A stretch of 12,440 bases of DNA from a virus (taxonomy: Duplodnaviria > Heunggongvirae > Uroviricota > Caudoviricetes), in IMG/VR virus record IMGVR_UViG_2698536348_000004; one strand, written 5' to 3'. Shown piece by piece: positions 8,813 to 8,890 of this stretch; positions within the stretch are counted from its first letter, which is position 1, and every line of letters begins with the position of its first letter. A model generated the notes under the pieces. That model ran no database searches and had not been told where the DNA came from. It saw only the letters and a program-made list of their open reading frames with translations. The translations under genes were made by a program, and so were the position numbers.

Positions 8813-8890
8813 AGGAATATCCTTTTTCGTACTTTCAGTACGTATTATGGTTGAACTGAAAGTTTTTGCAAGTGCTTTAGTATCGTACTC
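8813..8890. promoter_or_regulatory. OR region: divergent pR and pRM with three candidate operators
   Basis: pR on the minus strand: TTGCAA (8866-8871) - 17 nt - ATAATA (8843-8848). Dyads TCGTACTTTCAGTACGT (8827-8843), TTGAACTGAAAGTTTT (8851-8866) and a TCGTAC half-site at 8883-8888. cI ATG at 8891 has no SD, so the transcript is probably leaderless. Confidence 0.6.

Follow-up and report, generated by a model that had tools for sequence, protein, structure and literature searches.

The 78 bases between cro and cI in the DNA analysed here (referred to as the window, 12,440 nt in length) are the right operator of the immunity region of phage 933W, comprising OR1, OR2 and OR3 together with the promoters pR and pRM. 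This operator is already known: it was annotated earlier and has been characterised biochemically, and therefore finding it again adds no new biology. Its recovery is a check that the reading by eye, from which the preliminary description was made, had found a real operator. Two small refinements can be added, namely an operator architecture common to 933W and HK022 and the restriction of the exact inverted 9-mer to the 933W/SF10 lineage. The switch governs the induction of Stx2 prophages, and hence the release of Shiga toxin, in E. coli O157:H7 and other Shiga-toxin-producing E. coli.

The ATG of the reverse-strand cro gene ends at 8812 and the ATG of cI is located at 8891, which leaves an intergenic region of 78 bp. 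Positions 8400-9700 are 100% identical to phage 933W (AF125520, NC_000924) and, among the matches listed, to 12 more Stx-phage records. Of 5426 complete E. coli genomes, 427 contain the same 86-bp operator. We regard it as almost certain that positions 8813-8898 constitute the right operator of a prophage or phage with the 933W immunity region, containing three 15-bp binding sites for cI. The identity, the positions, the conservation and the match of the statistics were computed here; binding, affinity order and regulatory outcomes are taken from the literature. Binding and regulation rest on PMC3317979 (Bullwinkle et al. 2012) and PMC5977221, which come from the same laboratory as the primary studies, and on the GenBank annotation.

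The cI gene (8891-9598, plus strand) encodes a protein of 235 aa with HTH_3 and Peptidase_S24 domains, is annotated in AF125520, and its product is 100% identical to 933W cI. The residue numbers S41/K42/K46 used in PMC3317979 are consistent with a cI start at 8891. The neighbouring gene (8585-8812, minus strand; 75 aa, helix-turn-helix) is named cro in AF125520. Sequence identity and domain content thus indicate a divergent cI and cro pair of the imm933W type. The general lambdoid CI/Cro layout was found as well, i.e. divergent repressor and cro genes, several operators over two back-to-back promoters, and a pL operator.

Operator sites and promoters

AF125520, whose annotation is that of Plunkett 1999, and GQ499365 both place OR1, OR2 and OR3 on identical 15-mers, none of which is assigned to a strand. 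OR1 (CGTACTTTCAGTACG, 8828-8842) is labelled 'operator oR1' in AF125520 and 'OR1 repressor binding site' in GQ499365. OR2 (TGAACTGAAAGTTTT, 8852-8866) and OR3 (CGTACTCATGGTTCA, 8884-8898) are named oR2 and oR3 in the former and OR2 and OR3 in the latter record. The two left operator sites, likewise without a strand, are OL2 (CGTACCAATAGTTCT, 11933-11947) and OL1 (CGAACTATTGGTTCA, 11957-11971). The features 'OL2 repressor binding site' and 'OL1 repressor binding site' of GQ499365 map to 11934-11949 and 11956-11971, respectively. The preliminary description had outlined a three-site OR, which coincides with the operators in AF125520 and GQ499365. It had also suggested a comparison with published operators, and the operator coordinates of the two GenBank records correspond exactly to the proposed sequences. 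According to PMC3317979, affinities of the 933W operators were measured by gel shift and by DNase I footprinting, the latter in its references 11 and 12.

The promoter pR (8844-8871, minus strand), which transcribes cro, has the -35 hexamer TTGCAA at 8871-8866, a spacer of 16 bp and the -10 hexamer CATAAT at 8849-8844. It is the sole promoter-like match of a consensus scan in 8700-9000, is marked as putative in AF125520 and AP004402, and both of its hexamers are invariant in the relatives. The palindromic nature ascribed earlier to the -35 hexamer holds true, as TTGCAA (8866-8871) is its own reverse complement, and it is the annotated pR -35. On the opposite strand, the putative pRM (8856-8883, plus strand; 'pM; putative' in AF125520) shows the -10 hexamer TAGTAT at 8878-8883 and a weak -35-like sequence, CTGAAA, at 8856-8861 inside OR2.

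OR1 is a perfect 6+3+6 palindrome, which is located just downstream of the pR -10 and over the inferred pR start. It is described as the strongest natural site (PMC3317979). OR2 fills the pR spacer between -35 and -10, and one of its half-sites is a degenerate AAAAC. One OR2 half-site was reported to lack the G-C pair at position 2 and to sit in a 4-bp A-tract (PMC3317979); the TTTT at 8863-8866 is the counterpart of that A-tract. The central base of OR3 is the A of the cI start codon (8891), and the right half of the site (GGTTCA) falls into codons 2-3 of cI. The opening ATG GTT CA of cI (8891-8898) forms the right half of OR3 and is conserved in 933W, SF10, HK022 and three more distant loci (L083, L086 and L087). 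The conservation of an operator half-site inside the cI start indicates that the operator constrains the N-terminus of the repressor that binds it, Met-Val-(Gln/His).

About 3 kb to the right, the putative pL (11947-11975, plus strand) consists of TTGATA, a 17-bp spacer and CATTAT, and reads toward nutL and N. It is the sole promoter-like match in 11700-12240, and nutL and N are located downstream of it in AF125520. OL2 is the promoter-distal of the two OL sites and overlaps the pL -35 with its last base. OL1 lies within the pL spacer and overlaps the pL -10 by 2 bp.

A different set of sites is annotated in Stx2 phage I (AP004402), for which 17-bp 'putative operators' and cI promoters are given at 3946-4028 and 5415-5495, some of them inside cI or downstream coding regions. 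Operators and promoters inside cI were rejected here as a misfit to the motif and to the conservation pattern. Since the operators of that record match neither the 15-bp motif nor the 933W annotation, that part of its annotation looks wrong.

The operator motif and its relatives

The binding site of the 933W repressor is 15 bp long and has rotational symmetry around a central base pair, and five natural sites are known (PMC3317979). The five sites of the window reproduce every positional statistic given in that paper. The half-site consensus is C-G-(A/T)-A-C-(T/C), and the OR sites are centred at 8835, 8859 and 8891. CGTACT occurs three times, in both halves of OR1 and in the left half of OR3. 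OL2 combines CGTACC (left) with AGAACT (right) and OR2 combines TGAACT (left) with AAAACT (right); the left half of OL1 is CGAACT, and TGAACC forms the right halves of both OR3 and OL1. In agreement with PMC3317979, positions 4 and 5 are invariant across the 10 half-sites, position 2 is a G in all but one OR2 half, and position 6 is T in 7/10 and C in 3/10. OR1 deviates from this consensus at positions 3, 3' and 7' and has a three-base central A-tract, again as published. Such a central 3-bp A-tract was reported to raise the affinity more than 4-fold, and indirect readout was proposed as the cause (PMC3317979).

The preliminary description had taken a 9-bp core, present in opposite orientations in two OR sites, as the unit of the operator. 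The two copies, ACTTTCAGT at 8831-8839 and ACTGAAAGT at 8855-8863, are indeed perfect reverse complements (9-nt arms, 100%), and the window holds no other exact copies. Its site A (TCGTACTTTCAGTACGT, 8827-8843) is OR1 with one extra base on each side and its site B (TTGAACTGAAAGTTTT, 8851-8866) is OR2 with one extra base. The true unit is, however, the 15-bp dyad about a central base pair. A TCGTAC half-site had also been proposed, shared between the cI start and the OL region. This sequence is found in both places, at 8883-8888 as the left half of OR3 and at 11932-11937 as the outer half of OL2. OL1, the other OL site, had been overlooked, as both of its halves belong to the GAAC type. Among the 10 half-sites, CGTAC occurs in only 4, GAAC in 5 and AAAC in 1. 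TCGTAC as such starts at 8827, 8883 and 11932, and additionally at 5156 and 7100, which are unrelated places. It is not enriched in the window, with 5 copies compared to 2.8 expected and 34 of 200 shuffles reaching 5. TCGTAC was therefore rejected as the defining half-site, being neither enriched on its own nor carried by more than 4/10 half-sites.

The pattern GWAC-N5-GTWC has 5 exact matches in the 12.4 kb, which are OR1, OR3, OL2, OL1 and a site in stk; OR2 fits it with one mismatch. A position weight matrix ranks the five operator sites first with 12.2-17.7 bits (OR1 16.3, OL2 16.5, OL1 17.7), followed by a next-best match of 9.7, a ranking that is circular since the matrix was built from these sites. 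The mean maximum matrix score in mononucleotide shuffles was 11.5. Two candidates for a sixth site, at 11305-11319 (8.7) and at 2974-2988 (9.7), both stay below this value and were discarded. The former, CGTACTAGATGTACT, is located inside the serine/threonine kinase gene stk; it is an exact match to GWAC-N5-GTWC with an unfavourable base at position 6', and probably arose by chance. No matrix score of at least 9 bits was found for a third OL site or for a site between cro and cII. Near OL this is in line with the published lack of an OL3 in 933W (PMC5977221).

For the analysis of conservation 82 loci were used, consisting of 80 IMG/VR contigs with a cI at least 98% identical and, from GenBank, two records of the same phage type. 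The IMG/VR scan yielded only relatives at least 98% identical, and the search for homologues of the DNA-binding domain returned only 7 proteins. The OR sites of the 82 loci show no more than two rare substitutions, C8836 to T in the OR1 centre (2 loci) and G8842 to A (1 locus), and OR2 is invariant. The OR1-OR2 spacer and the cro leader are much more variable than the OR sites. OR2 is also identical in L083, L086 and SF10, and one base differs in L087.

The more distant loci L083, L084, L086 and L087 all have three OR sites whose centres are 24 and 32 bp apart. In L083, L084 and L086, whose sequences reach OL, two OL sites follow at a distance of 24 bp. The Salmonella phage SF10, with a DNA-binding domain 91% identical, exhibits the same architecture of OR (24 and 32 bp) and OL (24 bp). 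OR3 is placed on the cI ATG in SF10, L083, L086, L087 and HK022 as well.

The repressors of L083 (5001-5420), L084, L086 (359-781) and L087 (288-710) comprise 139-140 aa and their DNA-binding domains are 78-80% identical to that of 933W cI. They carry a short charged C-terminal tail in place of the S24 autocleavage domain, in the same cro/cII context. Genes adjacent to these short repressors encode a BstA_C domain (L084) and a Bro-N domain (L086). For prophages of this kind, induction may depend on an antirepressor instead of RecA-stimulated cleavage. In L088 a cI 70% identical is apparently frameshifted and the operator set is diverged. SF10 contains a weaker extra match to the motif, CGTACTAAAAGGACA at 3404-3418, which scores 12.6 bits. 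It lies upstream of the OL2-like site of SF10, at a distance of 33 bp, and could be an OL3 that is absent from 933W.

HK022 (X16093) has a repressor with a DNA-binding domain 50% identical and operator sites of the same motif family, the 15-bp (T/C)G(A/T)AC-N5-GT(A/T)C(A/G). As in 933W, its cI-proximal OR site is centred on the cI ATG (ATGGTTCA) and the middle OR site lies inside the pR spacer. The centres of its three OR sites are 24 and 33 bp apart and those of its two OL sites 24 bp, which is like 933W. As HK022 shares both the 15-bp motif and the spacings, we conclude that 933W and HK022 have one operator architecture. Unlike in 933W, OR1 and OR3 of HK022 are identical 15-mers in direct orientation and mirrored cores are absent. 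HK022 also contains an unannotated, extra operator-like site just downstream of cro (3324-3338, TGTACTTTTAGTACC), for which there is no counterpart between cro and cII in the window.

The window resembles lambda (J02459) in the three operators between divergent cI and cro genes, in the back-to-back arrangement of pR and pRM, in the S24 autocleaving repressor and in the distance of 24 bp between the O1 and O2 centres. The sites themselves differ in sequence and length, with 17 bp in lambda and 15 bp in the window. The centres of OR2 and OR3 precede the cI ATG by 42 and 19 bp in lambda, compared to 32 and 0 bp in the window, and the intergenic region spans 100 and 78 bp, respectively. Lambda has three OL sites and binds its repressor cooperatively, whereas in 933W there are two OL sites, and OR1 and OR2 are bound without cooperativity (PMC5977221).

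Mirrored cores and other readings of the repeats

The inverted 9-mer covers operator positions 4 to 4', that is, the contact arms ACT/AGT and the 3-bp A-tract in the centre. Since these arms are conserved in the operators, only the central TTC/GAA adds information. The OL pair is inverted as well, with ACCAATAGTTC in OL2 and GAACTATTGGT in OL1 at 24 bp from centre to centre (11933-11971). It is conceivable that this mirroring was selected, in which case OR1/OR2 and OL2/OL1 would each form a 39-bp pseudo-palindrome read by a two-fold higher-order complex, for instance a dimer of dimers or Cro, or would serve a symmetric phasing of A-tract bends. We consider such selection quite improbable. The mirror was measured as the identity, in inverted orientation, of the central 5 bp of each site pair. 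In 933W the OR1/OR2 centres TTTCA and TGAAA score 5/5 inverted and only 2/5 in direct orientation, and the OL2/OL1 centres CAATA and TATTG likewise 5/5 and only 2/5. By a naive estimate, the probability of this by chance is ~1/64 for OR1/OR2 and ~1/256 for OL2/OL1. Both pairs are spaced by 24 bp, and SF10 reaches the same 5/5 in OR and OL despite different outer operator positions. However, the test was post hoc, and SF10 is close enough for shared ancestry to explain the agreement. In the more distant relatives the mirror decays, with values for OR and OL of 4/5 and 2/5 in L083, 3/5 and 1/5 in L086, and 4/5 in the OR pair of L087, for which there is no OL value. It is absent from HK022, where both pairs score 1/5. 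Changes in one partner are moreover left uncompensated (OR1 TTC to TTT in L052 and L061; OL in L028, L032 and L040), and no covariation between the mirrored cores was detected in the 80 close relatives or the more distant ones. Binding to OR1 and OR2 was also reported to be non-cooperative (PMC3317979, PMC5977221). The decay and the uncompensated variants argue for a mirror that is specific to the 933W/SF10 lineage and not required. The opposite orientation had been put forward as part of the operator architecture; as it is lost in the distant relatives and in HK022, it is not a conserved design feature. A symmetric dimer should be insensitive to which way the centre faces. A plausible, if speculative, origin of the core orientation is a double use of the bases, as a -35-like CTGAAA for pRM in OR2 and as a purine-rich initial pR transcript in OR1. 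The OR2 core does yield CTGAAA, the annotated pM -35, and HK022 has CTGATA at the same place; the OR1 core, in the direction of pR, places purines at the predicted start of that promoter.

Two further readings deny the repeats a role as protein binding sites, and neither retains any appreciable probability. The OR1 palindrome and its T-rich tail might act in plus-strand transcripts as an intrinsic terminator or RNA hairpin, and the consensus scan did list 8828-8842 with the tail TATTATGGTT as terminator-like. The stem comprises, however, only 6 pairs with a 3-nt loop, its folding energy of -6.3 kcal/mol corresponds to z = -1.05, and an equal or better fold was obtained for 32 of 200 shuffles. 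The tail does not form a U-tract, and by analogy with lambda pRE, establishment transcripts would have to cross the region into cI. OR1 is annotated as an operator and described as repressor-bound (PMC3317979). The weak hairpin without a U-tract led us to reject a terminator. Just as improbable is a functionless chance similarity within an AT-rich intergenic region. The missing enrichment of TCGTAC alone would fit such similarity, and the exact GWAC-N5-GTWC inside stk shows that random matches happen. In contrast, when the 78 bp were dinucleotide-shuffled 2000 times, a separated perfect inverted repeat of at least 9 bp appeared in only 15 cases (0.75%), which places the inverted pair beyond naive chance. 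The five sites cluster at two early promoters, are conserved across diverged phages, and are annotated as operators and reported to be repressor-bound (PMC3317979, PMC5977221). Chance is excluded by this combination of clustering, conservation and published binding.

Proposed regulation and the surrounding element

As the sequence is identical to that of 933W, the published binding and regulation should carry over. The cI repressor, whose gene follows directly on the right, would bind as a dimer to each of the three two-fold symmetric 15-bp OR sites. Occupation of OR1, over the inferred pR start, and of OR2, in the pR spacer, would switch off pR and thereby cro and the lytic genes. Repressor at OR3, centred on the cI ATG, would switch off pRM, and OL2 and OL1 would control pL at a distance of ~3 kb to the right.

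For 933W the relative KD values of OR1, OR2 and OR3 in the intact operator are 1 : 13.6 : 26.4 (PMC5977221), and no cooperativity was observed between OR1 and OR2 (PMC3317979, PMC5977221). Repressor bound to OR2 activates PRM (PMC3317979), and repressor at OR3 represses it (PMC5977221). In lysogens OR3 is partly occupied, so that PRM is depressed and the repressor is kept at ~34 molecules per cell; the authors tie this low level to the easy induction of the prophage (PMC5977221, PMC3317979). According to the published biochemistry, the filling order OR1 > OR2 > OR3 is governed by intrinsic affinity alone, with neither pairwise cooperativity nor an OL3, which leads to little repressor and easy induction.

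There is no Shine-Dalgarno sequence before 8891. A -10-like hexamer is located 7 nt before the cI ATG in 933W (TAGTAT), L083 (TAAAAT), L086 (TAGAAT) and L087 (TAATAT), and likewise in HK022 (TATAGT). Altogether TAnnAT, or TATAGT in HK022, is found at 7 nt from the ATG in six diverged sequences. A hexamer kept at a fixed distance from the ATG is the pattern expected of a real -10 element. We infer, with support from the relatives, a leaderless cI mRNA from pRM, as the preliminary description had supposed. The cI mRNA of lambda is leaderless. In this respect lambda is a known case and the window a predicted one.

In lambda PRM is activated from an OR2 about 42 bp upstream, next to the -35; provided that the cI mRNA has the inferred leaderless start, this geometry is not found here. 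The distance from the OR2 centre to the cI ATG is 32 bp in the window, 33 bp in HK022 and 42 bp in lambda. With an mRNA start at 8891, OR3 would be at +1 and OR2 would be centred at -32 and cover the -35 region of pRM, a position that is awkward for activation in the style of lambda. The inferred starts of pR and pRM are only ~54 bp apart. It is possible, although unlikely, that in the HK022/933W family OR2 lies on the -35 of a leaderless pRM and that the 'activation' of PRM is mainly a relief of competition from the overlapping pR, or a contact unlike that of lambda with sigma region 4; the mirrored O1/O2 cores would then be a by-product or a constraint. A comparable arrangement is known for phage 434, where a mutually exclusive use of PR and PRM is named in the title of Xu and Koudelka 2000, as given in the reference list of PMC4848623.

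The operator of the window does not differ from that of 933W, and cI, cro, pR, the putative pM, the three OR and the two OL sites are the same. The rest of the window differs from 933W, which accounts for only ~68% of the whole stretch; no complete E. coli genome accounts for more than 79%. The low coverage by 933W indicates that the host element is a mosaic relative and not 933W itself. Judged from its sequence, the element is a mosaic prophage or phage carrying imm933W. At the late-regulation end the window encodes a lambda-type Q of 207 aa (1608-2231), RusA (2413-2775) and YbcO (2772-3062); in 933W this end is occupied by the phage's own Q, NinG and NinH.
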